Positions 4,092 through 57,900 of a stretch of 58,201 nucleotides of DNA are shown one piece after another. How positions within the stretch are numbered: position 1 is the first letter of the stretch; each line of letters opens with the position of its first letter. Both the position numbers and the translations under genes were made by a program. The stretch is taken from the NCBI GenBank assembly GCA_964492195.1, contig CAZBJL010000005.1, positions 1 through 58,201 on the forward strand, in the 5' to 3' direction. The stretch comes from an uncultured Candidatus Saccharibacteria bacterium (lineage in GTDB: Bacteria > Patescibacteriota > Minisyncoccia > Phycocordibacterales > DATGWK01). The notes beneath the pieces are model-generated. The model was not told the origin of the DNA, did no database searches, and was given only the letters and a program-made list of their open reading frames with translations.

Positions 4092-4178
4092 TTTTTCTGC
4101 ACTGTTCTTCTTATCCCCACAGATCTCTCAAGATTCTGGGCTATAATTTGACTGTTTACTAAATAATAAATACTACCT

Positions 4179-9616: not shown

Positions 9617-10985
9617 GTTCTGTTTGGGTGAATACATACGCTGAATTCCCTGCCGTCACAGCAAAGGCTTCATTTTCATAATCAATCCCTGTTGCTGGAG
9701 CTGGTAGATCTTTACTCCATACTGGAACAAGTTCATTTTCTTGATTCAGTTCAAAAACCTGCAATTCCTTTTGGATATTGCTTGTGGCTGTGAAAACAAA
9801 ACCTCCCGCATACGTAAGGGCGTATATGTCTGCACCTGTCGGAGCAGAAGTAATTTCATTAATTTGAATGGAATTGCCTGTGGGATCAGTCTGATACTCG
9901 AGCACGGAGAGTTCATTGTGCCCCGGCACAGTGCCTTTATAGCGACCGAGAAATATCGTATTTCCCATAACTTGAATTGACCGACCATCTTCATTTCCTG
10001 GAAGATCGATTGCTGCCAGCTGAAGAATGTGTGTCGGATCCCTGATATCAAGTACGATGAGATCCCGAATATTTCCCGACGTGGCAAGAAATGCGAATCC
10101 ATCCTTAACAGAAATATCATTTATATTATGGTTAACTTCACGACTTCCAAGCCACCGAGGTGAGGCCGGGTCTGAAACATCGTAGATATGGAATTCATGT
10201 CCAGCGGTGCGTTTTGTACCAACATATATTTTGGAATCAAAATAAGAAATACTAATTGCCTCCGGCCGTACTCCTGCAACATTAGGAAGTGTCGATGTTG
10301 CAAGAAAATGAGGGGATGAATCAAGTGCAACAACCTGACTTGTACTACTATGCTGGGCTACAAAAGCATACTGTGTGGCTGCATCAATTTTATTCGCACC
10401 AATGCCAAAATCTAGAAAAGCTACATCGTGAGGATTTAATAAAGAAAAAGCAGCAACGTCAGCATCAGATTCTGATAGCGAACGAAGAGAGACAAATGCT
10501 CGACCGTTTGCAATATCTACTGAAGATGCAGGAAAACCGAGATCAACTGTATCAGTGAGTTGGAAACCTGATACTGAAAAATGTTTTGGTTGCCCACCAC
10601 AGTCATCACCGTACCGATGAGCCACATCCAGATCACTTGAAATAAACGAAACGTGCATCGTTGATGTACTCCGCCAGCCCGTTCGCCAGGAGGATTTTAC
10701 GTCCTTAACATCTTCACATCGAGTGAAGGGTTTTGTGACAACATCATTTTGAATTCCCCACATGTCCTGCACACTTTCTTCGGGATTTTGATTGTTTAAA
10801 ATATTCAGCAATTTACTCGAGGAAAGATGGAGCGCAGTGATACTTCTCACATTATGGATAAACAAATCTCCTATCTGCCACTGGGTATCGAACACAGCAG
10901 CAAAAATTATAGAAAACAAAGTGAGCGCGAGGATCACTTCAACCAAACTCACACCACGAGAATGTTTAGAGTATTGCGCCGGCAT
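9609..10985 (-). CDS. Pseudopilin fused to an LVIVD-repeat beta-propeller domain
   Basis: N-terminus SRG/VSLVEVILALTLF is prepilin-type. The C-terminal ~330 aa carries repeated units resembling LVIVD repeats, e.g. DLIVLDIRDP, FHIYDVSDP, LQVFEL. Confidence 0.75.
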   Translation of the reverse strand: MPAQYSKHSRGVSLVEVILALTLFSIIFAAVFDTQWQIGDLFIHNVRSITALHLSSSKLLNILNNQNPEESVQDMWGIQNDVVTKPFTRCEDVKDVKSSWRTGWRSTSTMHVSFISSDLDVAHRYGDDCGGQPKHFSVSGFQLTDTVDLGFPASSVDIANGRAFVSLRSLSESDADVAAFSLLNPHDVAFLDFGIGANKIDAATQYAFVAQHSSTSQVVALDSSPHFLATSTLPNVAGVRPEAISISYFDSKIYVGTKRTAGHEFHIYDVSDPASPRWLGSREVNHNINDISVKDGFAFLATSGNIRDLIVLDIRDPTHILQLAAIDLPGNEDGRSIQVMGNTIFLGRYKGTVPGHNELSVLEYQTDPTGNSIQINEITSAPTGADIYALTYAGGFVFTATSNIQKELQVFELNQENELVPVWSKDLPAPATGIDYENEAFAVTAGNSAYVFTQTEHE

Positions 10986-11412
10986 TGTGTATCGTTATTA
11001 CTTCACTACAAGTTGAACTACTTGTTCCGATGTGAATCTCAATTTCATGTTCATTTCCAACAAGTGAACCACTCCCTTCCTGAAAAATTATTTCATCTGT
11101 GGCTGATACTGGGAGTGGCGCTTGATGATTTATTTCATCACGCAAAATTGAATGATTACGTTCTTCTGAATACATCTGGTAACCCTCATCATTTATTTGA
11201 ACTGAAACATTCCCATTTCCGGAGAACTGGGACAAAAATTGCGCCCGCTCGAGTGCAAGCTTCGCGGTTTTTACTTCTTGAGCACAGGCGTATGTAGAAA
11301 GTGCCGGCACCGTGTATGCAACAGACGCAACTGCAATAAGCCCCGCCAACGCCAACACGAGCACAATCTCAATGAGCGTAAACCCTTTTTGTTGAGTTCT
11401 GTCTTTACACAT
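10966..11412 (-). CDS. Prepilin-type pilin/pseudopilin
   Basis: MCKDRTQQKG/FTLIEIVLVLALAGLIA is a canonical class III signal. The ATG overlaps the pilC stop (ATGTGTAA). Confidence 0.8.
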   Translation of the reverse strand: MCKDRTQQKGFTLIEIVLVLALAGLIAVASVAYTVPALSTYACAQEVKTAKLALERAQFLSQFSGNGNVSVQINDEGYQMYSEERNHSILRDEINHQAPLPVSATDEIIFQEGSGSLVGNEHEIEIHIGTSSSTCSEVITIHNAGAIL

Positions 11413-42866: not shown

Positions 42867-43490
42867 CTATGAAATCCCCTTCAAAAAACTCCTTCGATGA
42901 ATCTCACTCGGCCCGAATTTCTTAATTTTTTGCCGATGAGAAAGCGTTCCATAGCCTTTATGAATATGAAAATCAAAGTCAGGGTACCGTTTTGATAACC
43001 GAATCATTGTGTGGTCACGGGTAACTTTGGCGACGATGGATGCAAGGCTGATGAGTGGTTCGCTTTGATCTCCACGGATGATCGTTTTTTGGTATAAAAA
43101 TTCTTCTGGAGCAGAGAGACTGCCATCGAGAATAACCATTGTCTGATGAGCTGGCACTTGGAGTTTTTTAAGAATTTTTTTCGTCGCAAGGCGAATCGCA
43201 AAGACAATTCCCTTTTCGTCGATAATTTTTGGACTGATTAAAGCTACCGCGAAGTCGAGTGATTTTTCTTTTTTTGCGTGCTTCATTTTTTTGAAAATTT
43301 CTTCACGAACTTTCGGCGAAAGCATTTTTGAATCTTTTGCGATTTTAAAAAGAGGATGTTTTGTGTTGAAAGGTATGACGACAGCACCCACAGAAACCGG
43401 TCCAGCCAAAGGCCCACGCCCTGCCTCATCTATTCCAACAATAAAATTAATACGACTCGGATATATTTTGACGATTTTCGGCGCGGTCAT
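42867..43490 (-). CDS. rnhB: Ribonuclease HII
   Basis: GIDEAGRGPLAGPV catalytic motif. The start was chosen at MTAPKIV; the ORF extends to 43532. Confidence 0.9.
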   Translation of the reverse strand: MTAPKIVKIYPSRINFIVGIDEAGRGPLAGPVSVGAVVIPFNTKHPLFKIAKDSKMLSPKVREEIFKKMKHAKKEKSLDFAVALISPKIIDEKGIVFAIRLATKKILKKLQVPAHQTMVILDGSLSAPEEFLYQKTIIRGDQSEPLISLASIVAKVTRDHTMIRLSKRYPDFDFHIHKGYGTLSHRQKIKKFGPSEIHRRSFLKGIS

Positions 43491-43518
43491 GGAAGTAGGT
43501 AAGGTAATCTCTAAGTTG

Positions 43519-43524
43519 TATAAT
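43519..43524 (+). promoter_or_regulatory. -10 box 6 nt upstream of the dnaE ATG (leaderless configuration)
   Basis: TTG-TATAAT, then cgtagc, then ATG. No SD. Confidence 0.5.
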
Positions 43525-43530
43525 CGTAGC

Positions 43531-46500
43531 ATGTCGAAATTTACACACCTCCACGTCCATAGTCATTACAGCCTCCTCAACGCTTTGCCCAAAATCCCCG
43601 ACCTTGTTGAAACAGCGAAAGAAAATGGAATGGAGGCACTCGCCCTCACCGACAACGGCAACCTCTATGGCGCAATCGAGTTCTATAAAGAATGCAAAAA
43701 AGGTGGCATCAAACCCATTTTAGGTATCGATGCGTACGTTGCTCCTCGAACTCGAGCAGACAAAGAACGCGGTATCGACAACCCTCGCCAGCGTTTGTTG
43801 CTTTTGGCAAAAGATGTTTCGGGCTACAAAAATCTCATCAAGATTGTGACTACTGCAAACCTCGAGGGCTTTTATTACAAACCTCGCGTCGACAAAGAAC
43901 TTGTCCAAACTCACAAAGAAGGTCTCATCGCTATTTCACCTGCAATGTATGGCGAAGTTGCAAGTGCGATTGCAAACAAAGATTTTGAAAAAGCCAAAAC
44001 GATCATTACCTTTTACAAAGAAACATTCGGTCCTGATCATTTTTATATTGAAATAACCTATCATCCAGAAATCGACGGTCATGAAGAAAAAATGGCAGGC
44101 GTGATTAAGATCGCAAAAGAAATGGATGTGCCGATCGTCGCGGCGCACGAAGTTTTTTATCTTTCGGTTAAAGATCGCCTTGCTCGCAACACCCTTGTTT
44201 CGATTCAAAATATTGATTACAGCGACAGGAACAACGGTGGCGGAGGTATCGGCGACTCCGAAGAAGATTTTTCTATGATCACACCAGCGCAAGCCGAAAA
44301 GTTTTTCAAAAAAATTCCGGAAGCACTTGAAAATAATGAAAAAATCGTCGGTATGTGCAACCTGGAACTCCAGCTCGGCAAATGGCTCTTTCCAAACATT
44401 GTCGTTAAAAGCGGGCTTTCGTATGACGACGAACTCCGACACATGGTCTATGAAGGCCTCAAACGCCGCGGAGTAATCGAGACTCCAGAGGCAAAAACAA
44501 GAATTGACTTCGAGCTTGGTGTCATTAAAGACAAAGGCTATGCGCCATACTTCCTCGTTGTGGCCGACCTTCTTGCCTTTGCCCACAAAAACCACATCCT
44601 CACGACAATTCGAGGTTCGGTTGCCGGATCTTTTGTTACATACCTTTCCGGAATTACAAACGTCGATCCGATAAAATTTAAATTGCCATTCGAACGATTC
44701 TTAAATCCCGAACGTCCATCTGCTCCCGATATCGACATGGACTATGCCGATAACCGTCGCGATGAAATGATTGCGTATGCAAAAGAAAAATACGGCGCAG
44801 ACAAAGTCGCCCAGATCGGAACGTTCGGTACGATGATGGCCCGTGGCTCTGTACGCGACGTTACCCGTGCACTCGGTCATCCATACATTTTGGGCGACAA
44901 AATTTCAAAACTCATTCCGATGGGTGCGCAAGGATTCCCGATGACTATCGACCGTGCAATGGAAGAAGTCGCCGAACTCCGCCAACTCTATAAAGCTGAC
45001 GCAACGGTAAAAGAAATCATCGACATGGCAAAAAAGATTGAAGGTTGTGCACGCCACATTTCAGTTCATGCCGCTGGTGTTGTTATTTCCCCTGTTCCTC
45101 TTACAGAAATCGTACCGCTTCAGTACGACACCCGCGAAGGCAAAGACATCATCACCCAGTACGATATGTATTCGATCGATGAAGAAAATGCCGGCCTCCT
45201 CAAATTCGACTTTCTTGGAATTAAAAACTTGGCGATTCTTGCCGACGCCGTTGCACTGACTAAAAAACTCAAGAACATCGACATTGATATTGAAAACGTT
45301 CAGATTGATGACAAAAAAACGTATGAAATGCTTGCTCGAGGTGAAACGCTTGGCCTTTTCCAGCTGAACGGCGAAGCAATGACGAAGTTCCTCAAAGAAC
45401 TCCGCCCGACAAACATCAACGACATCAACGTCATGATCGCCCTCTACCGTCCGGGTCCAATGCGAAACATTCCCGATTACATCAACCGCAAGCATGGAAA
45501 AGCTCCTGTCACGTATCTTCATCCAAAAATGGAAAGTTACCTCAAAGACTCGTACGGGATTTTGGTGTACCAGGAAGACATCATGTTCACGGCGCTCGAA
45601 CTCGCTGGCTACACCTGGAAAACAGTCGACAAACTCCGCAAAGCCATCGGTAAAAAAATTCCAAAAGAAATGGAAGAGCAGCATGCAGTGTTTGTCGACG
45701 GCTGTTTGAAATCTTCGAATATTCCGAAAGAAAAAGCCGAGCAAATCTGGGATTTGTTCGATCCGTTCAAAGGCTACGGCTTCAACAAAGCCCACGCCGC
45801 AAGCTACGGCAAGGTTGCATACCAAACGTCATACATGAAGGCGAATTTCCCTGCGATCTATATGTCAGCCGTCCTTACTGCGGATTCTGGCGACGTCGAG
45901 CAAATCGCCGAAATTATTTCTGAATGTAAACGCATGAAGATTCCCGTACTCGCCCCAGACATCAATGAAAGCTTTGGTGGATTTACCGTCGTGCAAGACG
46001 ACGCATCACAAATAGAGAAAATTCGCTTCGGGCTCTACACCATCAAAAACCTTGGCGAAGGCATTGCTGACACGATTATTACGGAAAGAAAGAAGAATGG
46101 AAAATTCAAATCTCTTTCAGATTTTTTGGATCGAGTGAAAGATAAAAATTTAAATAAAAAGTCTCTCGAAGCCCTTATTAAAACTGGAGCAATGGATGAA
46201 CTTGGCGAACGCGGCCAGCTTCTTGCGAATCTCGAAAATATTCTTGCATACAGCAAAGAAAAAACTGCGGGTAACGATGGACAATCCCTTTTTGGTTTGA
46301 TGGCGGACACCTCAAGTATCCCTGGCCTCCGGCTCGCTCCCGCTGAACCCGCAAGCAACCAAGACAAGCTGACCTGGGAACGCGATCTCCTCGGACTCTA
46401 CATTTCTGGCCACCCACTCGATCGCTTCAAAGAAAAAATCGCAAAGCTTGGCGGAGCAATTAACCAGACAAAAGAACACGCAATCGAAGGCAGCACGATC

Positions 46501-46734
46501 GTTATTGCCGGACTCATTGAAGAAGTGAAACCAATTTTTACAAAAAAAGGCGACAACATGATGTTCATCCGACTCGGTGATTATTCTGGAAGTATCGAAG
46601 CAGTGGTGTTCCCGAAAACTCTCGAAGCATACAAAGATGTATTCACTCAAGACAAATGCGTAGCCGTAAAAGGAAAAATTTCTACGCGAAACGGCGCACG
46701 AAGTATTGTAGTGGACGTTGCAAAAGCTCTGTAA
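43531..46734 (+). CDS. dnaE: DNA polymerase III alpha subunit
   Basis: PHP domain FTHLHVHSHYSLL, polymerase core and OB fold. The ORF-track start at 43291 is antisense to rnhB and was rejected. Confidence 0.95.
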   Translation: MSKFTHLHVHSHYSLLNALPKIPDLVETAKENGMEALALTDNGNLYGAIEFYKECKKGGIKPILGIDAYVAPRTRADKERGIDNPRQRLLLLAKDVSGYKNLIKIVTTANLEGFYYKPRVDKELVQTHKEGLIAISPAMYGEVASAIANKDFEKAKTIITFYKETFGPDHFYIEITYHPEIDGHEEKMAGVIKIAKEMDVPIVAAHEVFYLSVKDRLARNTLVSIQNIDYSDRNNGGGGIGDSEEDFSMITPAQAEKFFKKIPEALENNEKIVGMCNLELQLGKWLFPNIVVKSGLSYDDELRHMVYEGLKRRGVIETPEAKTRIDFELGVIKDKGYAPYFLVVADLLAFAHKNHILTTIRGSVAGSFVTYLSGITNVDPIKFKLPFERFLNPERPSAPDIDMDYADNRRDEMIAYAKEKYGADKVAQIGTFGTMMARGSVRDVTRALGHPYILGDKISKLIPMGAQGFPMTIDRAMEEVAELRQLYKADATVKEIIDMAKKIEGCARHISVHAAGVVISPVPLTEIVPLQYDTREGKDIITQYDMYSIDEENAGLLKFDFLGIKNLAILADAVALTKKLKNIDIDIENVQIDDKKTYEMLARGETLGLFQLNGEAMTKFLKELRPTNINDINVMIALYRPGPMRNIPDYINRKHGKAPVTYLHPKMESYLKDSYGILVYQEDIMFTALELAGYTWKTVDKLRKAIGKKIPKEMEEQHAVFVDGCLKSSNIPKEKAEQIWDLFDPFKGYGFNKAHAASYGKVAYQTSYMKANFPAIYMSAVLTADSGDVEQIAEIISECKRMKIPVLAPDINESFGGFTVVQDDASQIEKIRFGLYTIKNLGEGIADTIITERKKNGKFKSLSDFLDRVKDKNLNKKSLEALIKTGAMDELGERGQLLANLENILAYSKEKTAGNDGQSLFGLMADTSSIPGLRLAPAEPASNQDKLTWERDLLGLYISGHPLDRFKEKIAKLGGAINQTKEHAIEGSTIVIAGLIEEVKPIFTKKGDNMMFIRLGDYSGSIEAVVFPKTLEAYKDVFTQDKCVAVKGKISTRNGARSIVVDVAKAL

Positions 46735-46779: not shown

Positions 46780-48534
46780 ATGAATAATAAAACTAACATC
46801 GAGGCTCTTCGTCATTCCCTTGCCCACCTTTTGGCTGCTGCAGTCCTCGAACTCCACAGGGATGCAAAACTTACAATCGGCCCAGCAGTCGACAATGGTT
46901 TTTACTACGATTTTGAATTCAGCTCGCCTGTTTCTGACGCAGATTTACCGAAAATCACCAAAGCAATGAAAAAGCTTCTTCCTTCATGGAAAAGTTTTGA
47001 ACATGAAGAAGTTTCAGAAAGCAAAGCTCGAGAAATTTTCAAAGATAATCCGTACAAGCTCGAACTCATTGATGAGATTGTAGAAAAAGGTGAAAAAATT
47101 ACTCTCTATACTGCTGGAAAATTTACCGACCTCTGCCGTGGTGGTCACCTTGAAAATCCAGCAAAAGAAATCGACTCTGATGCATTTGTACTCGACCGTG
47201 TTGCTGGTGCCTACTGGCGTGGCGACGAAAAGAACAAAATGCTCACTCGCATCTACGGTCTCGCGTTTGGAACAAAGGCCGAGCTCGATGAATACGTGAA
47301 CATACGCGAAGAAGCTAAAAAACGCGATCACAAAAAGCTTGGAAAAGAGCTTGGTCTTTTTGTCTTTTCAGAATTAGTCGGAGCAGGCCTTCCTTTGTGG
47401 ACTCCTAAAGGCACCATCATGCGCGAACTCCTCAACGACTACGTCTGGGAACTCCGTAAGAAAAAAGGGTATCAGAAAGTCTCAATTCCCCACATTACCA
47501 AAAAAGATTTGTACGAAACTTCTGGACACTGGAGCAAATTTGCCGATGAACTTTTCAAAATCACCACACGTGAAAAGCATCTCTTTGCCATGAAGCCTAT
47601 GAACTGTCCGCATCATACGCAGATTTTCGCAAGCTCACCCAAAAGCTATCGCGATATGCCCCAGCGATACTGCGAAACAACGATGGTCTACCGCGACGAA
47701 CAATCCGGCGAGCTTTCCGGTCTTTCTCGTGTCCTTTCTATTACCCAAGACGATGCGCATGTGTTTTGTCGCAAAAGTCAGATCAAAGATGAAGCCTTTG
47801 CGGTCTGGGACATTATCGATGAATTCTACAAAGTGTTTGGTTTCAAAGATTTAAAAATCCGAGTCTCACGCCATGATCCAAAAAAGTTTGAAAATTACAT
47901 TGGAACTCCAGAAACATGGAAAGAGGCTGAAGACCAGCTTGTCGCTCTCGTTAAAGAACGTGGCATAACAGAATTTATCGACGGCCTCGGTGAAGCAGCA
48001 ATGTACGGCCCAAAGATCGACTTCATTGCCAAAGATTCAATTGGCCGTACGCTCCAACTCGCCACAATCCAGCTCGACTTTAATATGCCGAAAAACTTTG
48101 ACCTTACCTGCACAAATGAAAAAGGTGAGAAAGAACTTATTGTTATGATTCATGCCGCAATCATGGGCTCAATTGAACGCTTTATGAGTGCCTTGATCGA
48201 ACACATGGCTGGCGTTTTCCCGCTCTGGCTTTCTCCAGTGCAAGTAAAAATTCTTCCTATTACAGAAAATCATGTAGGCTACGCCGAAACAGTATTCAAC
48301 GAACTCAAGAAAAATAATATTCGTGTCGAGCTTGATATGACAAATGAAGGTCTTGGCAAAAAAGTTCGCAATGCGAAAATTCAGAAAATTCCATACATTC
48401 TCGTAATCGGAGAAAAAGAAGTTGAGGCACAAAAAGTTACTGTTGAAAGTCGAGACAAAGGCAACATCGGCCAGATGTCACTTTCAGAAATTTCTGAAAA
48501 GCTCCACAAAGAAATCGAAGAAAAAAGTTTGTAG
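46780..48534 (+). CDS. thrS: Threonine--tRNA ligase (no N-terminal TGS domain)
   Basis: Starts in the editing domain (RHSLAHLL, CRGGH). Class II core and anticodon-binding domain are present. Confidence 0.93.
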   Translation: MNNKTNIEALRHSLAHLLAAAVLELHRDAKLTIGPAVDNGFYYDFEFSSPVSDADLPKITKAMKKLLPSWKSFEHEEVSESKAREIFKDNPYKLELIDEIVEKGEKITLYTAGKFTDLCRGGHLENPAKEIDSDAFVLDRVAGAYWRGDEKNKMLTRIYGLAFGTKAELDEYVNIREEAKKRDHKKLGKELGLFVFSELVGAGLPLWTPKGTIMRELLNDYVWELRKKKGYQKVSIPHITKKDLYETSGHWSKFADELFKITTREKHLFAMKPMNCPHHTQIFASSPKSYRDMPQRYCETTMVYRDEQSGELSGLSRVLSITQDDAHVFCRKSQIKDEAFAVWDIIDEFYKVFGFKDLKIRVSRHDPKKFENYIGTPETWKEAEDQLVALVKERGITEFIDGLGEAAMYGPKIDFIAKDSIGRTLQLATIQLDFNMPKNFDLTCTNEKGEKELIVMIHAAIMGSIERFMSALIEHMAGVFPLWLSPVQVKILPITENHVGYAETVFNELKKNNIRVELDMTNEGLGKKVRNAKIQKIPYILVIGEKEVEAQKVTVESRDKGNIGQMSLSEISEKLHKEIEEKSL

Positions 48535-48841: not shown

Positions 48842-50923
48842 TTAGATGTCGATTGTCGCCTTCTTCGCGTTTGACTGAATGAATGACTTTCGAGCTGGAA
48901 CGTCTGTACCCATGAGAATATCGAACACCTTGTCGGCTTCGATAGCGTCGTGCACAGTCACCTGCTTGAGGATTCTGTGTGCAGGGTCCATGGTTGTTTC
49001 CCAGAGTTCTTCGGAGTTCATTTCTCCAAGACCTTTGTAGCGCTGAATTGAAACCTTTGCCTTTTTCGGTTCATCAGAACCTTTTCCCTTACCTGTTTGC
49101 TGTTCTGATTCTTCAGTGTTTTCTTCTACGGCTTCCCCATCTTCACCTTCAGTAACTTCCTCTACCTCAAAATCATTTCCAACTTTCTTGAATTTTTCTT
49201 CATCACTGTATGCGTAGGAAATTTCTTTACCTTGTTTGATTTTATAAAGCGGGGGTTGGGCAACATACACAAATCCACCATCGAGGAGCGGACGGAAGAA
49301 ACGGAACAAGAGTGTCAAAATGAGCGTACGGATGTGGGCTCCGTCGACGTCGGCATCAGTTGCAATGATGATTTTGTGGTATCTCAACTTACTTACATCA
49401 AATGAATCGGCGATACCAGCGCCAAATGCGAGCACGAGATTTTTAATTTGCTCTGATGCGAGCATTTTGTCGAGACGTGCTCGTTCGATATTTAAAATTT
49501 TACCGCGCAAAGGCAAGACTGCCTGCGTGCGACGATCACGACCAGACTTTGCAGTACCACCAGCGGATTCTCCCTCCACAATCCAGACTTCGGAATCCTC
49601 GGCAGAAGTTCCTGCTTGGCAGTCTGCGAGCTTTCCCGGCAATGTCATGCCTTCGAGCGCACCCTTGCGGAGAACACCGTCCTTTGCGGCTTTAGCAGCT
49701 TTGCGAGCCTGGAGCGCAAGAGACACTTTGCTGATGATTGCACGAGCGTCTTCAGGATTTTCTTCGAGGAAATATGAAAAAGCTTCGCTGAAAATAGTTT
49801 CTACCATACCTCGAGCCTCGACGCTTCCGAGTTTTGCTTTCGTCTGACCTTCGAACTGTACCTCGCGGAGCTTTACGGAAATGACTGCAGTGAGACCTTC
49901 CATAACGTCTTCACCAGTAAAATTGTCCTCTTCCTTTCCATTACCACCGTTTTTCTTGGCGTATGTGTTGAGTGTTCGAGTAAGAGCAGATTTGAAACCT
50001 GTCACATGCGTTCCACCTTCGGAATTGTAAATATTGTTGGCAAAGGCAGTAAGACGACTTGAAACTTCGTCAATATACTGAAGTGCGATTTCGACTGTTT
50101 CGTATTCCTTTACAGCTTTTTCAACATAGAAAATATTTTTGTGAATTGGCTTCTGGGTTTTGTTATGAAATTTTACGAGTGACAAAAGTCCTCCTTCAAA
50201 ACAGAAAGATTGCGAAGGAAAATCCCCACCAATCTCGCGAACATAGAAAACTTCAGTAAAATCTGTGCCGGCTTTTGCTTCTCGCGCATCAATAACGCTG
50301 ATTCGCAAACCTTTCACAAGGTATGCCTGCTGACGCATGTGGTTTACGATTCGGTCAACTTCAAATACTTGTTTACCAAAAATTTCTTCGTCTGGTTCAA
50401 AGGTGATGATTGTGCCATTTTGTTTTGTTGAACCAACTTTTTTAACTGCAGCTTTTCTTTTTCCTTGACTGTATTCCTGCATGTATATGCCGCCGTCTTT
50501 GTGAACTGTTGCATTAACGTAAACAGAAAGTGCGTTTACAACAGATGCGCCGACACCGTGGAGACCTCCGGAAACTTTGTAACCTTCGCCGCCGAACTTT
50601 CCTCCAGCGTGAAGTGTTGTCATGATTGTTTCCAATGCAGAAACTTTTGTTTGTTTATGAATGTCGATCGGAATACCTCGGCCGTTGTCGGCGACACGAA
50701 CGCGGTTGTTAGGGAGAAATGTAACTTCAATATCATTCGCAAAACCACCCATGGCTTCGTCGCGGGAGTTATCGAAAATTTCTGTAACCAAATGATGGAA
50801 GCCGTCTGGACCAGTTGTACCAATGTACATTCCGGGTCGTTTTCGGACCGGTTCAAGACCTTCAAGAACCGAGATTTGATCGGCGTTATAGTTTGATTTT
50901 TTAGGTTCTTTTTCAGCAGCCAT
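48842..50923 (-). CDS. gyrB: DNA gyrase subunit B
   Basis: GHKL ATPase HHLVTEIFDNSRDEA, TOPRIM EGESAGG and PLRGKILN. The start was chosen at ATG 50923; the ORF track uses an upstream TTG. Confidence 0.95.
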   Translation of the reverse strand: MAAEKEPKKSNYNADQISVLEGLEPVRKRPGMYIGTTGPDGFHHLVTEIFDNSRDEAMGGFANDIEVTFLPNNRVRVADNGRGIPIDIHKQTKVSALETIMTTLHAGGKFGGEGYKVSGGLHGVGASVVNALSVYVNATVHKDGGIYMQEYSQGKRKAAVKKVGSTKQNGTIITFEPDEEIFGKQVFEVDRIVNHMRQQAYLVKGLRISVIDAREAKAGTDFTEVFYVREIGGDFPSQSFCFEGGLLSLVKFHNKTQKPIHKNIFYVEKAVKEYETVEIALQYIDEVSSRLTAFANNIYNSEGGTHVTGFKSALTRTLNTYAKKNGGNGKEEDNFTGEDVMEGLTAVISVKLREVQFEGQTKAKLGSVEARGMVETIFSEAFSYFLEENPEDARAIISKVSLALQARKAAKAAKDGVLRKGALEGMTLPGKLADCQAGTSAEDSEVWIVEGESAGGTAKSGRDRRTQAVLPLRGKILNIERARLDKMLASEQIKNLVLAFGAGIADSFDVSKLRYHKIIIATDADVDGAHIRTLILTLLFRFFRPLLDGGFVYVAQPPLYKIKQGKEISYAYSDEEKFKKVGNDFEVEEVTEGEDGEAVEENTEESEQQTGKGKGSDEPKKAKVSIQRYKGLGEMNSEELWETTMDPAHRILKQVTVHDAIEADKVFDILMGTDVPARKSFIQSNAKKATIDI

Positions 50924-51072
50924 GAGTTTTTCAAATGCGAAACCGTCCAAATACCTACGGACGGCTTTTGCAATTTAACCTTTTCTTTATAAGCCTATTT
51001 TACCAAAACTGACCCCATAATACAATGCCAAAATCCCCCAATTTTGGAGGTATTTTACAGGTCATGTTATGC

Positions 51073-51101
51073 TTGACAATATTTCAATACAATGATATGA
51101 T
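51073..51101 (+). promoter_or_regulatory. Sigma70-type promoter
   Basis: TTGACA-17-TATGAT. Confidence 0.6.
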
Positions 51102-51178
51102 AGTAACAGAAGCATCGAGAGGACATGGCGTCGAAACGCCATGCTTCGGTGCAAAACTCCATTTCACGGAGAGTATCA

Positions 51179-51312
51179 TGTTGTACGACCAGATGACATT
51201 GGAAGACACTCGGGCCTTCGATTACGACCTCAACCACGGATGGATGGTGTCGTTCGAGAAGCCGGTCCAGAAGGTGCAGGCCGGCCGCGTCGAGCCCTGG
51301 CAGCTCAGCTGA
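51179..51312 (+). CDS. 44-aa hypothetical protein (orphan)
   Basis: GGAGAG lies upstream of the ATG. A structured ~70-nt leader precedes it and a terminator follows. The longer 51025 start precedes the promoter. Confidence 0.4.
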
Positions 51313-51345
51313 TCCTCGTAACGTTTCAAAAACTTGAACATTCGT

Positions 51346-51375
51346 AGGCCCGCACTTTGTGTGGGCCTTGTTTTA
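51346..51375 (+). terminator. Intrinsic terminator
   Basis: AGGCCCGCAC-ttt-GTGTGGGCCT followed by TGTTTT. Confidence 0.7.
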
Positions 51376-51392
51376 TGTAGAGAGACTTACTT

Positions 51393-52595
51393 TTAAATAT
51401 AGCCCTTCGTTCCCTTGTGGAGCTTTGGATACACTGCATCGTAGAGTTCGTTCGCCTCCTTTTTTGTAAGTGTAAGGTCTGGATGTCTTAACACAATCGT
51501 AACGAGAATGTTGTCCTGTCCCACAGAAGCACCGAGTTTTTCGCGGACAATCGGAAGAAGGTCTTCGTATTTTGTTCGAGAGATTATTTTTACATTTTCC
51601 ACGAGATACGATTTGTCACCAAACGCGTCTTTTATTTCTTCATTTATATCTTCTTCGGTGAAATTCCCCGGTATGCAGTACGACATGTCTCGTGAGATTG
51701 GTGGCATACTCGAAACCTCTTTAAACTTTGAAGTATTCGTCATCTGCTCGGCGATTCGTGGTTCTTTAGAACGCAAATATCGTACGTCAGGAATTTCTTT
51801 AAGGGCCATCGTAAGACGATCGAGTCCGAGACCAAGCGCAAGACCAGAATAGATTTCTGGGTCAAAGCCAGCACCTCGCAACACTTCTGGATGCGCGAGA
51901 CCAGCTTCTAGAATTTCAAGTTCAGAGTTGTCGAATTTTGCATACACTTCGACACCATTAAGCGTGTATGGGTGAACAGCCTTGTAAATAACAGGTTGTG
52001 AGCCCGGTACCACAGCTTCGAAAATCATATTCACCAAGCCGAGTAAATCAGCGTCAGTTACGGGACCTCGTGTGCCATTTTTTCGAAGCGTCCACACGTC
52101 CATCTGATGAAAGACGTCGAGATGTTTTGGATCAATCACGTCACGACGATATACAAGACCTACAAAAATAAAAACGGTGTCAGGAATATCGCCGTTGAAT
52201 TCTTGATAAAAATTCTTGAATGTTTCAGGAACATTCGCGGACGTGTGCGTTCGTAACACATGATTTTCGTCTGTATAGCGTGTGTATGTCGACGCTCGTC
52301 CTGCGTTGTCGTATGGGAACAAGAGCTTATCGAAATTATCTTCAACAGACACGATTGGGTTAGCTCGAATGACTCGCATTTGACCAAAACCAGCGGCTTC
52401 GAGCCGAGTTTTAACTTTATTTAAAATAATATTTATTGCATGAAGCGGACTGTCGTCGAGCGTGAGATCCGTTACCGCAAGCGCTTTCTCTATCGCTTCA
52501 GGTGTAGAAACCTCGAATCGCAACAAATCGTCGTTAGGACGTTTCGCATTCACCGCTAATTCCGCTCTTTTTAATGCAGACTGTTCTTCTTTCAT
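51393..52595 (-). CDS. pheS: Phenylalanine--tRNA ligase, single-chain type (PheS-like catalytic core plus C-terminal FDX-ACB-like domain)
   Basis: Class II motif 2 YRRDVIDPKHLDVFHQMD and motif 3 GLALGLGLDRLTMAL. About 95 extra C-terminal residues follow (PPISRDMSYCIPGNF...). No pheT is adjacent. Confidence 0.8.
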   Translation of the reverse strand: MKEEQSALKRAELAVNAKRPNDDLLRFEVSTPEAIEKALAVTDLTLDDSPLHAINIILNKVKTRLEAAGFGQMRVIRANPIVSVEDNFDKLLFPYDNAGRASTYTRYTDENHVLRTHTSANVPETFKNFYQEFNGDIPDTVFIFVGLVYRRDVIDPKHLDVFHQMDVWTLRKNGTRGPVTDADLLGLVNMIFEAVVPGSQPVIYKAVHPYTLNGVEVYAKFDNSELEILEAGLAHPEVLRGAGFDPEIYSGLALGLGLDRLTMALKEIPDVRYLRSKEPRIAEQMTNTSKFKEVSSMPPISRDMSYCIPGNFTEEDINEEIKDAFGDKSYLVENVKIISRTKYEDLLPIVREKLGASVGQDNILVTIVLRHPDLTLTKKEANELYDAVYPKLHKGTKGYI

Positions 52596-53431
52596 TGGTT
52601 TACGTTTAGTTCGGCGAGATAATTAGTATCTTTTATATACACACGGTTGTCACTTACCCTAAAATCCGGCTGCTGACCTCGATATATTGGATAGAAATTC
52701 TGATACGGTCTGCGGTCGATTTCTACTGCATACACACCGTTGTCCAACGCCAGCATAATAGCATCAGACCGTGAAGGATAAAAATCAAACGACCGAATTG
52801 GCACGAAGGATTCAAAAACCAATACAGGGTCTGTACAGCTAATAACCGTGCAGAAATATTTTGGTGCGGAATCTTCACTTCCCGTCCATTGTGCGTATAT
52901 CGTGTTACCCGTACGCCAAATTTCAACTTTTTTATATGTAAGAACTTCCGGACTTGTCGTTGCGGAAGCAGTTTTATTTATTTTAAGTGAGCTTGGAACA
53001 GTTGAAGAAGCAAAGAGAGTAAGGATTTCTTTTCGAGACGCCGGAGTAGTGATTTCATCCGCAACAATAACTTTTGGCACAAGTAACGGATAGAGCGCTT
53101 CAACCTCCCCCGCTTTTACCTGAATGATTTTTGCCCATGGCCAAAACGCTTCATTTGCCGCAAGGACGAGGTATTGATCTGGCTTGAGATTGTTGACGAG
53201 TACTTCTCTTTTAAGGAAACCTGACTGGCTTTTAAGCTCATTGCCAATATAGACCGCAGTATTCGGTTCTGGTGTAAACACGTAGACGCCACCACGAATC
53301 GTGAGACCGAGGGTCGTGTCGAACGTGTAGCCGTTTGAGTAAAAAACAAGAATCGGAAAACCTACGAGAAAAACAAGAAGAAATCCAAAAAAATAGATGA
53401 GGCGTAACTTATATGAAACCGGACGTGGCAT
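52592..53431 (-). CDS. Membrane-anchored hypothetical protein (possible PEGA-like beta domain)
   Basis: N-terminal TM segment. Translationally coupled (ATGA) to the PheRS gene. Confidence 0.55.
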   Translation of the reverse strand: MPRPVSYKLRLIYFFGFLLVFLVGFPILVFYSNGYTFDTTLGLTIRGGVYVFTPEPNTAVYIGNELKSQSGFLKREVLVNNLKPDQYLVLAANEAFWPWAKIIQVKAGEVEALYPLLVPKVIVADEITTPASRKEILTLFASSTVPSSLKINKTASATTSPEVLTYKKVEIWRTGNTIYAQWTGSEDSAPKYFCTVISCTDPVLVFESFVPIRSFDFYPSRSDAIMLALDNGVYAVEIDRRPYQNFYPIYRGQQPDFRVSDNRVYIKDTNYLAELNVNQ

Positions 53432-53479: not shown

Positions 53480-55018
53480 CTAGGATTGATGCTTTGGCGT
53501 AACCCAAAAACCCATATATCGACCAAGCATAAGACGAGTCTGTGCATCGAGACTCGGAATTGAACCGAAGACAGTGATCGTAATCGGAATCAAAAGCCAT
53601 TGAATGAGCATGAAAACAAATTTAAAGCGTCCATGGACGATCGGTCGTTTTGGCAAAAAGCTCATAGAAATAATCGCAGAGAAAATGAGTCCACACATTG
53701 CAAGCACCATGAGGTTTCGCGTCACGACCGGCAAGTTATACGAAAGGACAGTGGTATGAAATCTGTATCCACCAAGGATAAGCGGCAACCAACTCAACAT
53801 AAAAATAATGATCGGGTTTGTCGCAAGCGACCAAAAGCCCTCAAGCTGAACAAATGCGACTCGTATCTTTTTCCAAGTCGAAATCCGTTTATTTTTTACC
53901 AAACCAAACAAAATATAGGGAATATTTTCCACTCCCCAACCCCATCGTCGCTGTTGTTTGTAAATATTTATAAGTGTCTGCCAAAAGGTTGGTGCGAGAT
54001 TTGCATCCATAGAAACGGGGTACGAAATCGGCGTCACAAAGTAGTCTCCGTCGTACGCAAGGTATGCATTCCAGAAAATTCGAGAGTCTTCGGAAACCAT
54101 ATTTTTCTGCCAATATCCAATTTCATGCAACACTTTAAAGCTCACTGAATGCGAAGAAAACGTCGCAATCTTTTCTGGACGTTCCTGCTGAATCATCTGC
54201 CAAAACGTACCTGACGTCGCAACAACTCGCGACAGTGCAGGCGCATCCCACATATTGTTGTTATAAAGCGGCACAGGTTGGAAAGAAGTCCTGAACGGCT
54301 TTTCCCCTGTGAGGAAATGCCACGTGATGCACGCGAGATAGTCCGAATACACCACAGTATCGATATCGAACGCAGACACGAGCACATTTTCATAAGGAAT
54401 TTTCTTTGCATCCAATATTTTCTTTCGAGCTTCATCGATTGCGTGTGCAATGTTTGATCCCTTTCCAGCCATTTCGCCAGGTAAATCCTTCGGGTGAATA
54501 GTGATAAGCAAATCACCAAAGACACCGGCGTATTCTTTCTTTACCTTTTCCGCTTTTTGTACTGCATCATTCCCTGCTCGTTCCTCAAGCGCAAGGACAA
54601 CGAGAATCTTTTTATTATCGTAATGCGAATCAACAAGCGACTTGAGGCAGTTTTCAATAACACTCACATCTTCTTTGTAGTACGGCAACAAAATGAGGTG
54701 GTAAATGTGTTCGTATTTCACATGACTTAACATTTCAAGCCAGTTAAGTGACCTGTTATGTTTCAAACGTCGCCAGTTTTGTCTCAAATACGTCGAAAGG
54801 TACACTGTCTTTAAAAGCCAGTAAAAATCAAAAATAATAATAAAAATTGCTGCGTAAACAGGTGCAAAGTACGAAAGGAGCACACAACCAAGAATCGAGC
54901 CCCACGCGAGAGCTCCTGGAAGGATTTCAAACGCTCGGTACAGAGTTCTGTCACGGCCAGTGAGTTCGGAGGCTCGGCCGATATGAAGTGGTTTGTAGAT
55001 TGGAACAGATGAATCCAT
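53480..55018 (-). CDS. Processive family-2 glycosyltransferase (cellulose/chitin-synthase-like), polytopic
   Basis: GT2 core with D, DxD (FDIDT) and QQRRWGWG (QxxRW) motifs, flanked by TM segments. Confidence 0.85.
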   Translation of the reverse strand: MDSSVPIYKPLHIGRASELTGRDRTLYRAFEILPGALAWGSILGCVLLSYFAPVYAAIFIIIFDFYWLLKTVYLSTYLRQNWRRLKHNRSLNWLEMLSHVKYEHIYHLILLPYYKEDVSVIENCLKSLVDSHYDNKKILVVLALEERAGNDAVQKAEKVKKEYAGVFGDLLITIHPKDLPGEMAGKGSNIAHAIDEARKKILDAKKIPYENVLVSAFDIDTVVYSDYLACITWHFLTGEKPFRTSFQPVPLYNNNMWDAPALSRVVATSGTFWQMIQQERPEKIATFSSHSVSFKVLHEIGYWQKNMVSEDSRIFWNAYLAYDGDYFVTPISYPVSMDANLAPTFWQTLINIYKQQRRWGWGVENIPYILFGLVKNKRISTWKKIRVAFVQLEGFWSLATNPIIIFMLSWLPLILGGYRFHTTVLSYNLPVVTRNLMVLAMCGLIFSAIISMSFLPKRPIVHGRFKFVFMLIQWLLIPITITVFGSIPSLDAQTRLMLGRYMGFWVTPKHQS

Positions 55019-55031
55019 GATGGAAAAAGTG

Positions 55032-55104
55032 AGCCACCTCTCGGATTTGAACCGAGGACCTACTGTTTACAAAACAGTTGCTCTACCAACTGAGCTAAGG
55101 TGGC
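55032..55104 (-). tRNA. tRNA-Thr (anticodon UGU), CCA not encoded
   Basis: Manual cloverleaf: acceptor GCCACCT/AGGTGGC, D arm GCTC-AGTTGGTA-GAGC, anticodon arm ACTGT-TTTGTAA-ACAGT, T arm CTCGG-TTCAAAT-CCGAG. Total 73 nt. Confidence 0.9.
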
Positions 55105-55145: not shown

Positions 55146-55517
55146 CTACGCCGTGTCGCCGTCGCGACGGAATGACATCGAACGCATGTACGGTGAAACG
55201 GTATTGTTTGAAAAGTCTCGCTTGCCTCTCATTTTTGGATTCGTCCCATGATAATACCCATGGGTTTTTGCTTTAATCCGTCCAAAGAGTGCTTCCACTC
55301 GATTTGGGATATGAACCAAAAAAAGAAAGAACGCTCTTTCTCGGCGATGATCCCAAATTTCCTGCAATCGTTTACCAACAGCAATGATTACAGGATCACC
55401 TTTAGAAAAAAATCGGCCAAAAAAAGTTTGTCGACCCTTTTTCATTTCTACACGCTTTACAACCAAGAGGAATAAAATTCCCAGAAGAGCAACGATACAT
55501 GTATAGAGCAGTGACAT
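55146..55517 (-). CDS. Membrane-anchored hypothetical protein
   Basis: N-terminal TM segment and a basic C-terminal region. No known domain. Confidence 0.5.
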   Translation of the reverse strand: MSLLYTCIVALLGILFLLVVKRVEMKKGRQTFFGRFFSKGDPVIIAVGKRLQEIWDHRRERAFFLFLVHIPNRVEALFGRIKAKTHGYYHGTNPKMRGKRDFSNNTVSPYMRSMSFRRDGDTA

Positions 55518-55523
55518 ACATTT

Positions 55524-56111
55524 TTAACGAACGGTTGAAAATCGGGCAAATCGCGCGACTTCAATTCGTTCACCAAACTTCTGTATAGCCGATTCAATCA
55601 TTTGGCTAATAGTTACATTTTGATCCTTTACGAAGGGCTGGTCAAGCAGTATACGTTCACCAAAATATGCATTTAATTTGCCTTCAATTGCCTTTTCTCG
55701 AATATTTTCAGGCTTATCTTTAACTTCATCTGCAAAGATTTCCTGCGCTTTTTTTCGAGCTTCAACGTCGATATCTTCTTTTTTCAAGAATTCTGGGTTG
55801 TTAGCCGCAACATGCATTGCAATGTCACGAGCAAGCGTCTTGAAGTCGTCGTTTTTTGCAACGAAATCTGTTTCGCAGAGAAGTTCAACCATGGCACCTA
55901 CCGTGCCACCACCGTGAATGTAAGAAGCAACGACACCAGAACCCAAGTTTCGATCAGATTTTTTGGAAGCGATGCCTTTACTATTCTTTTTGAGAATAAT
56001 AACTGCCTTTTCCATGTCACCATGAGCTTCCTCCAACGCCTTTCGACATTGCATAATAGAAATGCCTGTAAGATCTCTCAACTCCTTGATTCTTTCAACG
56101 GTTATTTCCAT
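55524..56111 (-). CDS. tsf: Elongation factor Ts (short form)
   Basis: UBA-like N-terminus IKELRDLTGISIMQCRKALEE and ETDFVAKN. It lies downstream of rpsB. Confidence 0.93.
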   Translation of the reverse strand: MEITVERIKELRDLTGISIMQCRKALEEAHGDMEKAVIILKKNSKGIASKKSDRNLGSGVVASYIHGGGTVGAMVELLCETDFVAKNDDFKTLARDIAMHVAANNPEFLKKEDIDVEARKKAQEIFADEVKDKPENIREKAIEGKLNAYFGERILLDQPFVKDQNVTISQMIESAIQKFGERIEVARFARFSTVR

Positions 56112-56146
56112 ATATATGATATAAAAAACGAACTAAAAACGAGTAA

Positions 56147-56851
56147 TTACTTCTTTGTAACTTTGCCAGAATTATAAGCCTCTACAAACTTATTTACGAA
56201 AAATGCAATGCTTGCAACTGACGCATCGTTTGCAGGAATAGCGTAGTCAACTTCAGTAATATCACAGTCAGAACCACAGAGCGCAACGATTGGAATTCCT
56301 CGTTCCTGTGCTTCCTTTACAGCAATATCTTCCTTTTTAGAATCAACAATAATGAGGGCCTTTGGCAATTCTTTCATTGGAATCAAGCCTTCAAAGAATC
56401 TCTTGAGATTTTCGATTTCTTTATCGATGAGCATTCTTTCGCGCTTTGTGTATTTTGCCAATTCACCCTTTTCTTTTTGCATGGTGAGGTCTTCGAGTTT
56501 TGCAACGCGTCTTTTGATCTGGGTAAAGTTTGTGAGCGTACCACCGATCCAGCGTCCATCAACGTACGGCATGCCAAGTTTGAGAGCTCCTGCCTTCACT
56601 GCAACACGCGCTTCGCCTTTGCCACCAACAAAAAGAACTGGTGCGTTCACTGCACCGAGGTTTTTTACGAATTCGAGAGCTTTATCTAAAGACTGATTGG
56701 TTTTTTCAAGATCAAAAATTTCAACACGGTTTTTTACACCGAAAATAAAAGGTTTTGTTGAAGGATGACGTCGTGAACGAACAAAGCCGAAGTGAGCTCC
56801 GACTTTAAAGAGTTCTGAAACAATATTTGATTCTGTTGGTTTGGTATTCAT
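56147..56851 (-). CDS. rpsB: 30S ribosomal protein S2
   Basis: LFKVGAHFGF..RRHPSTKPFIFG and the conserved S2 core. The ORF track uses an upstream TTG. Confidence 0.95.
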   Translation of the reverse strand: MNTKPTESNIVSELFKVGAHFGFVRSRRHPSTKPFIFGVKNRVEIFDLEKTNQSLDKALEFVKNLGAVNAPVLFVGGKGEARVAVKAGALKLGMPYVDGRWIGGTLTNFTQIKRRVAKLEDLTMQKEKGELAKYTKRERMLIDKEIENLKRFFEGLIPMKELPKALIIVDSKKEDIAVKEAQERGIPIVALCGSDCDITEVDYAIPANDASVASIAFFVNKFVEAYNSGKVTKK

Positions 56852-56940
56852 TGGTATTAAAATCCCGGGAAACAAAACGCGTTTCTAAGAGAAACGCTTG
56901 AGAAGTCTAGCAAAATAGGGTAAATATTGCAATTCTCTTT

Positions 56941-57900
56941 TTATTCTGCTTCTTTTGCTACTTTTTCCTGAAAAGACTCTACGATTTGGTCGAGGTCGCC
57001 TGCAAAGATTGCCTCAATATTGTGCCATGACTCTTTAAGGCGATGGTCGGTAATTCTGTCCTGTAAAATATTGTACGTCCTGATTTTTTCTGAACGATCG
57101 GCAGTTCCCACGAGTTCCTTCCTTTCCGCAGAGTGCTTTTTCGCTTCTTCGGCTTCATGAAGAACGTCGAGTTTTGCCTGCAAAATTGTCATCGCTCGTT
57201 CGCGGTTTGCCGACTGACTTCGTTCTGATGTGCAGCGCACGTCGATACCAGTTGGTTTATGGATGAGTCGAACGGCAGTTTCAACTTTGTTCACGTTTTG
57301 TCCGCCAGCGCCGCCGGAACGAGAAAATTCGATTTCAAGGTCAGCAGGATTGATTTCTACATTCACCTTTTTTCGAATCGGCAACACAGCAACAGAAGCA
57401 GTCGAGGTATGAACGCGGCCAGACTTTTCTGTCGCGGGAACGCGCTGGATTCGATGTACACCAGACTCAAATCGAAGGTCTTTATAGACACCCCTTCCTT
57501 TAATTTCAAAAGACGCATCTTTGTACCCACCGAGAGAATTTTTGGACTCCTCGAGAACTCGGACGATCCAGCCTCGACGTTCACCGAACCGGCGATACAT
57601 CGTTGCTAACTTTTCCGCAAAAAGGGCGGCTTCGTCACCACCGGCACCAGCACGTACTTCGAGAATGATTTCATTAGGAAACTCTTCTTCCGCAGCGTCT
57701 TTTGAAACAATCTCTTTCATCTGATTCATAAGAGATTCCTTTTGAGCGGCAAGACCGTCGAGTTCGTCTTTGGCAAGCGCCGCAAAAGACGGGTCAGTTG
57801 CGGCCATTGTTTTTACTTCATTTTCTTCTTTCTCGAGTTTGGAGTATAAATCCGCGAGAAAAGCAGTCTTAGAATTTTGTTTAAAACTTTCTATGTTCAT
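56941..57900 (-). CDS. prfA: Peptide chain release factor 1 (short, 319 aa)
   Basis: GGQ motif [16 protein letters not shown] and a PAT tripeptide ([14 protein letters not shown]). Confidence 0.9.

Follow-up and report, generated by a model that had tools for sequence, protein, structure and literature searches.

Genomic context and domain organization

The window analysed here is a stretch of 58,201 nucleotides (58 kb) from contig CAZBJL010000005.1 of assembly GCA_964492195.1, and the gene under study is a 400-aa open reading frame (ORF) with an ATG start on its minus strand, encoding a single-chain class II ligase related to the PheS subunit of bacterial phenylalanyl-tRNA synthetase (PheRS) and assigned below to type A of the NCBIfam family SrmL. 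The window is a Paceibacteria-type chromosome segment of the Candidate Phyla Radiation (CPR, or Patescibacteria) carrying rpoBC, dnaE, gyrB, thrS, hisS, tsf, rpsB, prfB, sigA, dnaG and type IV pilus genes, and the labels of its close relatives read Zambryskiibacteriota or Paceibacteria. The gene and its two domains map as follows.

51393..52595, minus strand: SrmL type-A gene, single-chain PheS-related class II ligase (ORF call, NF051887, AlphaFold2 model, Foldseek)
51744..52451, minus strand: class II catalytic core, residues 49-284 (Pfam tRNA-synt_2d, E 5e-33)
51414..51713, minus strand: C-terminal FDX-ACB-like domain, residues 295-394 (Pfam FDX-ACB and alignment)

An original prediction, made from the letters of the window alone, had described this ORF as a mitochondrial-type PheRS in which a PheS-type class II core is fused to an FDX-ACB anticodon-binding domain. 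The ORF and its core were borne out: the motifs quoted in that prediction are all present, and the core matches Pfam tRNA-synt_2d with 115 bits, its motif 2 (YRRDVIDPKHLDVFHQMD) carrying R150 and its motif 3 (GLALGLGLDRL) carrying R260. The second domain was recovered less cleanly, its 28.5 bits on Pfam FDX-ACB falling just under the gathering score of 31.1.

An AlphaFold2 model built from 36 homologues (pLDDT 91.2, pTM 0.88) superposed in Foldseek over its full length on human mitochondrial PheRS 5mgh (TM 0.77/0.76, rmsd 3.2 Å, 418 columns), whereas bacterial PheS structures span the core only (TMq ~0.5); the best PDB sequence match of the protein is also mitochondrial PheRS (E 1e-24). The full-length fit to the mitochondrial enzyme, together with the core-only fit of bacterial PheS, indicates that the C-terminal domain is FDX-ACB-like in fold and that the layout resembles that of mitochondrial PheRS. 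The modelled architecture is of the monomer type, a core followed by an FDX-ACB-like domain with no editing domain, the oligomeric state being a prediction; the B3/4 editing domain is absent from the single chain, in agreement with the earlier suggestion that the protein would lack the beta-subunit editing site.

Human mitochondrial PheRS (FARS2; 3CMQ, 3TUP, 5MGH), the "PheRS-M" type of AARS Online (PMC11580382), shares with SrmL a ~400-aa single chain ordered core-linker-FDX-ACB, a closed conformation and the lack of an editing domain, and has motif 2 (YRRDxID..H..FHQ) in common with the window protein. The two proteins are only 24% identical, and differ by the replacement of F-P-F-T with H-P-Y-T and of G-C-G with E-A-G, and by a 12-14-residue insertion. 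Bacterial PheS and PheT (TIGR00468, TIGR00472) are like SrmL in their homologous core, in motifs 1-3 and in occupying the same slot in related genomes; SrmL differs from them in its identity of only 21-30% to any PheS, in lacking a beta subunit with its B3/4, B5 and CLM domains, and in carrying an FDX-ACB-like domain of its own.

Membership and subtypes of the SrmL family

The window protein scores 381.8 bits on NCBIfam NF051887, "PheS-related mystery ligase SrmL" (cutoff 300), residues 42-395 aligning with positions 2-349 of the 349-position model, which is its full length. This profile match places it in a family that has been named but not characterised; a literature search returned no paper on SrmL or on any bacterial single-chain PheRS. 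Human mitochondrial PheRS falls below the cutoff (209 vs 300 bits). Other NF051887 members, on plasmids, in phage and in CPR genomes, share the two-domain layout (core plus FDX-ACB-like domain, ~360-420 aa) and the invariant residues of the window protein, which, unlike the non-CPR members, occupies the pheS-pheT slot described below. The residues specific to the family, judged in alignments of 121, 36 and 14 sequences, are all present in the window protein: H-P-Y-T, E-x-G, Q-x-D, Y-T-R-Y, [RE]-T-x-[YF] and a C-terminal G-Y. One type-B subgroup departs from the Q-x-D motif.

An exhaustive HMMER scan of 1.84 billion cluster representatives identified ~105 SrmL clusters at 50% identity (E <= 1e-30). 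CPR sequences form two length classes: type A proteins measure ~400 aa and share at least 52% identity with the window protein, whereas type B proteins measure ~370-377 aa and share 43-45%. A neighbor-joining tree of 246 core columns, including one mitochondrial sequence and no outgroup, recovers SrmL as monophyletic, with all canonical PheS, those of CPR included, on the opposite side (100% bootstrap). Type A is a CPR-only subclade (98% bootstrap) with a ~45-aa N-terminal extension and a motif 2 that keeps F162, and the non-CPR SrmLs are nested among type-B sequences. Of the two placements that the original prediction proposed to examine, separation from bacterial PheS was recovered, and the position of FARS2 is trivial in a tree with a single mitochondrial sequence and no outgroup; a sister relationship between mitochondrial PheRS and SrmL was for that reason set aside.

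SrmL type A in the pheS-pheT slot

The main new result, as far as the literature shows, is the positional replacement of pheS-pheT (pheST) by SrmL type A (SrmL-A). In the window and in the loci L001-L007 of close relatives the genes run in the order prfB, rpsB, tsf, orf123, tRNA-Thr(TGT), a family 2 glycosyltransferase (GT2), a membrane protein, SrmL, gyrB, thrS(-) and dnaE(-). The members of this block in the window are:

55146..57900, minus strand: orf123, tsf, rpsB and prfB, upstream block (same order in L094 and L095)
55031..55104, minus strand: tRNA-Thr(TGT), upstream boundary marker of the slot (ARAGORN, Rfam)
53480..55018, minus strand: GT2-family glycosyltransferase, 512 aa (Pfam Glyco_trans_2_3)
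52592..53431, minus strand: 279-aa membrane protein, its stop overlapping the SrmL start (ATGA); no Pfam or NCBIfam match
50951..51392, no strand: SrmL-gyrB spacer (tblastn, promoter and terminator scan)
48842..50950, minus strand: gyrB, conserved downstream neighbour of SrmL-A and of pheS-pheT (translation, synteny; gene tables of L081, L088, L089, L091 and L095)
46780..48534, plus strand: thrS, convergent with gyrB, downstream block (synteny)
43291..46734, plus strand: dnaE, downstream block (Pfam; synteny in L003, L004, L007, L039 and L095)

Four independent Paceibacteria loci of Yonath-, Kaiser- and Lloydbacteria type (L091, L094, L095 and L039) are collinear with the window but hold pheS-pheT in the slot; L091 and L094 are contigs of 732,962 and 752,725 bp, and L039 reads tRNA-Thr-pheS-pheT-gyrB-thrS(-)-dnaE(-). 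The flanking genes of the window and L091 are orthologous (prfB 63% identity, rpsB 60%, tsf 60%, GT2 56%, thrS 53%, membrane protein 28% with E 3e-38). The exchange recurs in a second arrangement, uvrD...X-gyrB-thrS(-), where X is SrmL in L081, L088 and L089 and pheS-pheT in the ABY1-like L055. Since pheS-pheT lies directly upstream of gyrB in 7-8 CPR lineages, the adjacency is ancestral. SrmL and pheS-pheT never occur together at one locus among the loci examined, and the divergence of SrmL-A between genome pairs keeps approximately the pace of thrS and dnaE. SrmL-A sits among translation and replication genes, and other lineages place it in further translation-gene contexts, such as 5 nt after gatB and ahead of rplY in L096.

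The original prediction had reasoned that, were pheT missing from the genome, the protein would be a minimal monomeric PheRS, and the presence of SrmL exactly where related Paceibacteria keep pheS-pheT constitutes positive evidence for that conditional idea. Its observation that no pheT is adjacent extends to the entire 58-kb window, in which neither pheS nor pheT was detected by tblastn with E. coli and CPR PheT or by Pfam analysis of long ORFs, and PheT is absent within 10 kb of ~30 SrmL loci. No contig is common to 120 SrmL and 240 CPR PheT matches, taken as the best 120 of the thousands in each list, a comparison that carries no weight in either direction.

The translational coupling proposed earlier is upheld for the ATGA overlap with the membrane-protein gene, 48 nt upstream of which lies the GT2 gene on the same strand. 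The same pair also precedes canonical pheS: the membrane-protein orthologue in L091, L094 and L095, and the GT2 orthologue in L091, with the same arrangement in L094. The pair is therefore inherited context that offers no clue to SrmL function, and the idea that both genes are specific functional partners of SrmL was dropped. In L039 the tRNA-Thr gene is the immediate upstream neighbour of pheS, and in L005 and L006 it precedes GT2. No dedicated tRNA adjoins SrmL, the only neighbour of this kind being the tRNA-Thr that also stands beside canonical pheS; no tRNA-Phe gene or T-box leader was found in any locus examined, nor did the window, L011, L025, L026 or the plasmid loci contain another leader RNA carrying a specifier codon.

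Several other features of these loci were recorded. Labels appear to be wrong for L001 (DATGWK010000105.1, "Candidatus Nanoarchaeia archaeon") and for L002, L003, L005 and L006 ("Candidatus Saccharibacteria"): all five share the bacterial gene order of the window, with SrmL 75-80% and GyrB 80-92% identical, and belong to the same Paceibacteria-type lineage as the loci labelled Zambryskiibacteriota or Paceibacteria. The uvrD-type loci carry a conserved 85-86-aa ORF with no Pfam match 8-21 nt upstream of SrmL-A (L081:9736-9993, L088:9720-9980, L089:9720-9980). On the 733-kb contig of L091, gyrB is present as two ORFs of 254 aa and 453 aa (L091:13764-15852), by frameshift, assembly error or a split gene. 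Within the SrmL-gyrB spacer of the window, a plus-strand unit (51073-51378), antisense in orientation, has a near-consensus extended -10 promoter, TTGACA-17-TGnTATGAT, at 51073-51101, and a strong terminator at 51346-51368 (10-bp stem, T-rich tail), the two bracketing ~245 nt that are locally rich in GC and contain short ORFs. The spacer does not resemble those of L001-L007, and the unit therefore looks like a strain-specific small gene or small-RNA insertion.

Canonical PheRS in related genomes

In relatives that retain canonical PheRS, PheS is reduced to 233-252 aa, a catalytic core that lacks the N-terminal coiled-coil arm and matches tRNA-synt_2d with 280-340 bits (minimal PheS at L039:566-1294, L080:454-1200, L036:10001-10702 and L091:9180-9938). 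The PheT of Paceibacteria lacks the B2 tRNA_bind domain and retains B3/4, B5, CLM and FDX-ACB, often with an NlpC/P60 (C40 peptidase) insertion between B3_4 and B5; such PheTs of Yonath-, Kaiser- and Lloydbacteria are found at L039:1296-3668, L091:10001-12361, L094:10001-12409 and L095:10001-12391. As a result of this insertion, many of them are named "C40 family peptidase" or "PheT-related protein" by the Prokaryotic Genome Annotation Pipeline. In a further group (L057, L072 and L078; GC 0.31-0.48), a canonical-type PheS shows the pocket Y-Y-P-E-V-S-P-G as opposed to the usual F-P-F-[TV]-E-P-[SG] and the motif 2 N-E-T-L-x-A-T-N..F-x-Q-Y-Q-G, and the similarity of the accompanying PheT to that of E. 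coli is confined to residues ~140-590.

Active site and anticodon-binding domain of SrmL

The residues expected of the adenylation reaction are invariant in SrmL: R100, R150 in motif 2, R260 in motif 3, and a T-H-T-S loop with H117 and S119. Given the conservation of the ATP-binding arginines and of this loop, SrmL should be an active adenylate-forming enzyme, as judged from its alignment. The core also carries a set of family-specific residues (N97, Y104, R106, D166, H208-P-Y210-T211 and E230). The F-P-F-T of bacterial and mitochondrial PheRS is invariably H208-P-Y210-T211, and the G-C-G of the PheRS G-x-G wall is invariably E230-A-G232, so that the window protein lacks the Phe-ring contacts of bacterial PheS, F-P-F-[TV] and the G-x-G wall. 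This pocket was initially considered to exclude Phe, an argument that was dropped because the equivalent positions of human cytosolic PheRS read N-P-Y-T and G-N-S-G (checked against 3l4g_A). With a genuine PheRS carrying polar and Tyr residues there, the pocket argument against Phe is weak; the N-P-Y-T and G-N-S-G of human FARSA (3L4G) indeed resemble the H-P-Y-T and L-E-A-G of SrmL. Archaeal and eukaryotic cytosolic PheRS are otherwise unlike SrmL in being heterotetrameric, in having other anticodon domains and in keeping HPAR..DTFF.

Human mitochondrial PheRS reads G34 through Asp364, Phe366, Ser375 and Arg414 (PMC7540514). Numbering of these residues was verified against 3cmq_A, and the SrmL C-terminal domain was aligned with the B8 domains of E. 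coli and CPR PheT and with human mitochondrial PheRS. E. coli PheT, five CPR PheTs and human mitochondrial PheRS all retain F-D-x-[FY] as well as the Ser and the C-terminal Arg. Every SrmL has I-[SE]-[RE]-T-x-[YF] in place of F-D-x-[FY], followed by the 12-14-residue insertion, and ends in an invariant G-Y; in the window protein these elements are I-S-R340-T341-x-Y343, an insertion helix at 348-354 and G398-Y399. In this alignment Y343 may preserve the aromatic platform provided by Phe366, with a register shift of 2 residues.

Distribution of SrmL outside the CPR and paralogues within it

Members from outside the CPR score highest on NF051887 (500-524 bits), above the window protein. They include the plasmid copies of Glutamicibacter nicotianae (524 bits) and Azotobacter chroococcum (515 bits) and a 71.5%-GC metagenomic locus beside a nuo operon (L025, 500 bits); SrmL is also present on the chromosome of Saccharospirillum mangrovi (3.69-Mb contig) and as a fragment on a resistance plasmid of Corynebacterium diphtheriae. 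In these hosts SrmL is a stand-alone accessory gene of chromosome, plasmids and phage. No consistent functional neighbours were detected around non-CPR SrmL, the surroundings being resistance islands, insertion sequence elements or a nuo operon.

Two copies on actinobacterial plasmids lie within multidrug-resistance regions: that of Glutamicibacter (plasmid pGnB68, L083:9001-10119) is flanked by cmx and by a DUF1772/NmrA/AraC block and has tet(33) nearby, and the truncated one of C. diphtheriae (plasmid FRC0402_p2, L085:7001-7585) is flanked by erm(X) and tet(65). A full-length SrmL of 359 aa, 41% identical to the Glutamicibacter copy, is carried by a 634,780-bp megaphage from the Japanese subsurface (LR745206.1; L093:19884-20963), where it is surrounded by unannotated genes and by genes for an SPFH protein and a HAD RNA-repair-type protein.

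In an 800,830-bp ENA scaffold of Nomurabacteria (L011), a type-B SrmL of 370 aa (3543-4655) and a type-A SrmL of 413 aa (10001-11242) lie 6 kb apart, and the same paralogue pair is present in GCA_000991655.1 and GCA_000991285.1. The two copies of L011 flank a decarboxylase-like gene of the pyridoxal phosphate-dependent type and a GFO/IDH/MocA oxidoreductase, with ilvE adjoining the type-A copy. L086 has a similar gene, encoding a decarboxylase-like protein of 538 aa, near its SrmL-A.

Discussion

The original prediction is partly supported by these results, its observation being confirmed and its interpretation in part. We lean towards the view that SrmL-A displaced pheST in situ and serves as the editing-free, single-chain PheRS of the cell. 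The exact collinear swap of pheS-pheT for a single-chain enzyme of the PheS family makes functional displacement in situ the simplest explanation, and the slot is joined as evidence by the intact catalytic residues, the cytosolic-like pocket, the structural match to mitochondrial PheRS and the housekeeping behaviour of the gene. The occurrence of SrmL as lone cargo on plasmids and phage without a PheT match (the megaphage record LR745206 is not among the PheT matches) also fits a self-sufficient enzyme.

According to this scheme, the canonical pheS-pheT operon would have been displaced by SrmL-A at its ancestral position in a Paceibacteria lineage, with no pheST elsewhere in the genome. The enzyme would activate Phe with ATP by means of the motif 2 and motif 3 arginines, in a polar pocket (H208-P-Y210-T, E230) that would parallel the N-P-Y-T and N of archaeal and eukaryotic PheRS. 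Phe would then be transferred to a tRNA-Phe held by the C-terminal domain, whose base-reading face would have been rebuilt with Thr341 and Tyr343 instead of Asp-x-Phe/Tyr, and no post-transfer editing would follow.

A number of observations weigh against SrmL-A as the cellular PheRS, and several of them favour the main rival account, one that we judge rather less than probable, in which SrmL-A is an accessory PheS-paralogous ligase for another amino acid and/or another acceptor (a different tRNA or a non-tRNA molecule), pheST resides elsewhere, and the slot arose by rearrangement. The window protein falls below the cutoffs of both curated PheRS models, with 103.4 bits on TIGR00468 (bacterial PheS; cutoff 237.45) and 158.3 bits, in two stretches, on TIGR00469 (mitochondrial-type PheRS; cutoff 258.35), where the controls score 279-309 bits (canonical CPR PheS on TIGR00468) and 452.6 bits (human FARS2 on TIGR00469); the earlier designation as a mitochondrial-type PheRS consequently holds for the single-chain architecture seen with Pfam and Foldseek, and not for identity under the curated model. 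NF051887, in turn, is an equivalog model to which NCBI gave the curated name "mystery ligase", and the SrmL clade stands apart from all canonical PheS, CPR included, with full bootstrap support.

Invariant changes affect sites that are universal in PheRS (N97, Y104, R106, D166, H208 and E230): Q-x-E becomes Q-x-D166, and the H-P-x-R...D-[TN]-[FY]-[FWY] of bacterial, mitochondrial and cytosolic PheRS becomes N97-x-G-R100...Y104-T-R106-Y107. Against this, the pocket pattern is compatible with a genuine PheRS. The changes in the anticodon domain count more strongly against PheRS identity than those in the pocket: none of the Asp, Ser and C-terminal Arg that read G34 is kept in any aligned SrmL, and the base-specific hydrogen-bonding residues are, on this alignment, lost from the domain.

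The distribution of the family also speaks for an accessory ligase. In Saccharospirillum, Azotobacter, Glutamicibacter and Corynebacterium SrmL presumably shares its host with a canonical PheRS, pheST being essential in ordinary bacteria as a matter of general knowledge, and is therefore accessory and not the housekeeping enzyme there. Two paralogues occur in one small Nomurabacteria genome, and some SrmL-A genes lie outside the slot, adjoining transposase fragments (L086 and L011). Absence of pheST is established for the 58-kb window, and a relocated copy may lie elsewhere in the genome. When the PheS and PheT of Paceibacteria were used as tblastn queries, no pheS or pheT remnant was found in SrmL-gyrB spacers (best E 0.016). 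The accessory-ligase account nevertheless requires that pheST left a site conserved across CPR classes and that a PheS paralogue landed exactly there, between the membrane-protein gene and gyrB, with both genes found together at no locus. CPR genomes of 0.6-1 Mb, moreover, seldom retain redundant synthetases.

A variant of the displacement reading, differing from it in origin only, holds that SrmL was born in situ when an ancestor of the Paceibacteria lost the interior of the operon, so that pheS was joined to the 3' end of pheT (B8), and that it later spread horizontally to other bacteria, plasmids and phages. Such a fusion would mirror the presumed origin of mitochondrial PheRS and account for the exact slot and for a domain order of pheS followed by pheT-B8; in addition, type A has the most PheS-like motif 2 (F162-H-Q) together with T-H-T-S, and the non-CPR SrmLs are nested in CPR type B. 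We nonetheless consider it unlikely, as the identity of the SrmL core to Paceibacteria PheS (29%) does not exceed that to E. coli PheS (30%), SrmL falls outside the canonical PheS clade with 100% bootstrap, the C-terminal domain bears no special likeness to the B8 of Paceibacteria PheT (E 0.014), intermediates or remnants were not found, and the best NF051887 scores belong to non-CPR members. Equally unlikely, finally, is the broader proposal that SrmL is a portable editing-free PheRS, the sole one of its Paceibacteria clade, carried on plasmids and megaphages and sharing a single-chain ancestor with mitochondrial PheRS, which would mean that the latter derives from a bacterial or phage gene of SrmL type, and that the proto-mitochondrion did not build it by fusing pheS and pheT independently.

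To our knowledge, all free-living bacteria are thought to use a heterotetrameric PheRS with beta-subunit editing, the single-chain form being known from mitochondria only. If SrmL-A is the sole PheRS of a CPR clade, it would represent the first single-chain PheRS in bacteria, and would indicate that a cell can do without PheRS editing and re-wire the recognition of the tRNA-Phe anticodon. It would also provide a function for a curated "mystery" family that is found on resistance plasmids and in a megaphage as well, and would reopen the question of the origin of mitochondrial PheRS. Should pheST instead reside elsewhere in the genome, SrmL would be an unexplained and widely mobile aminoacyl-tRNA synthetase paralogue with a distinctive conserved active site, still worth characterising.

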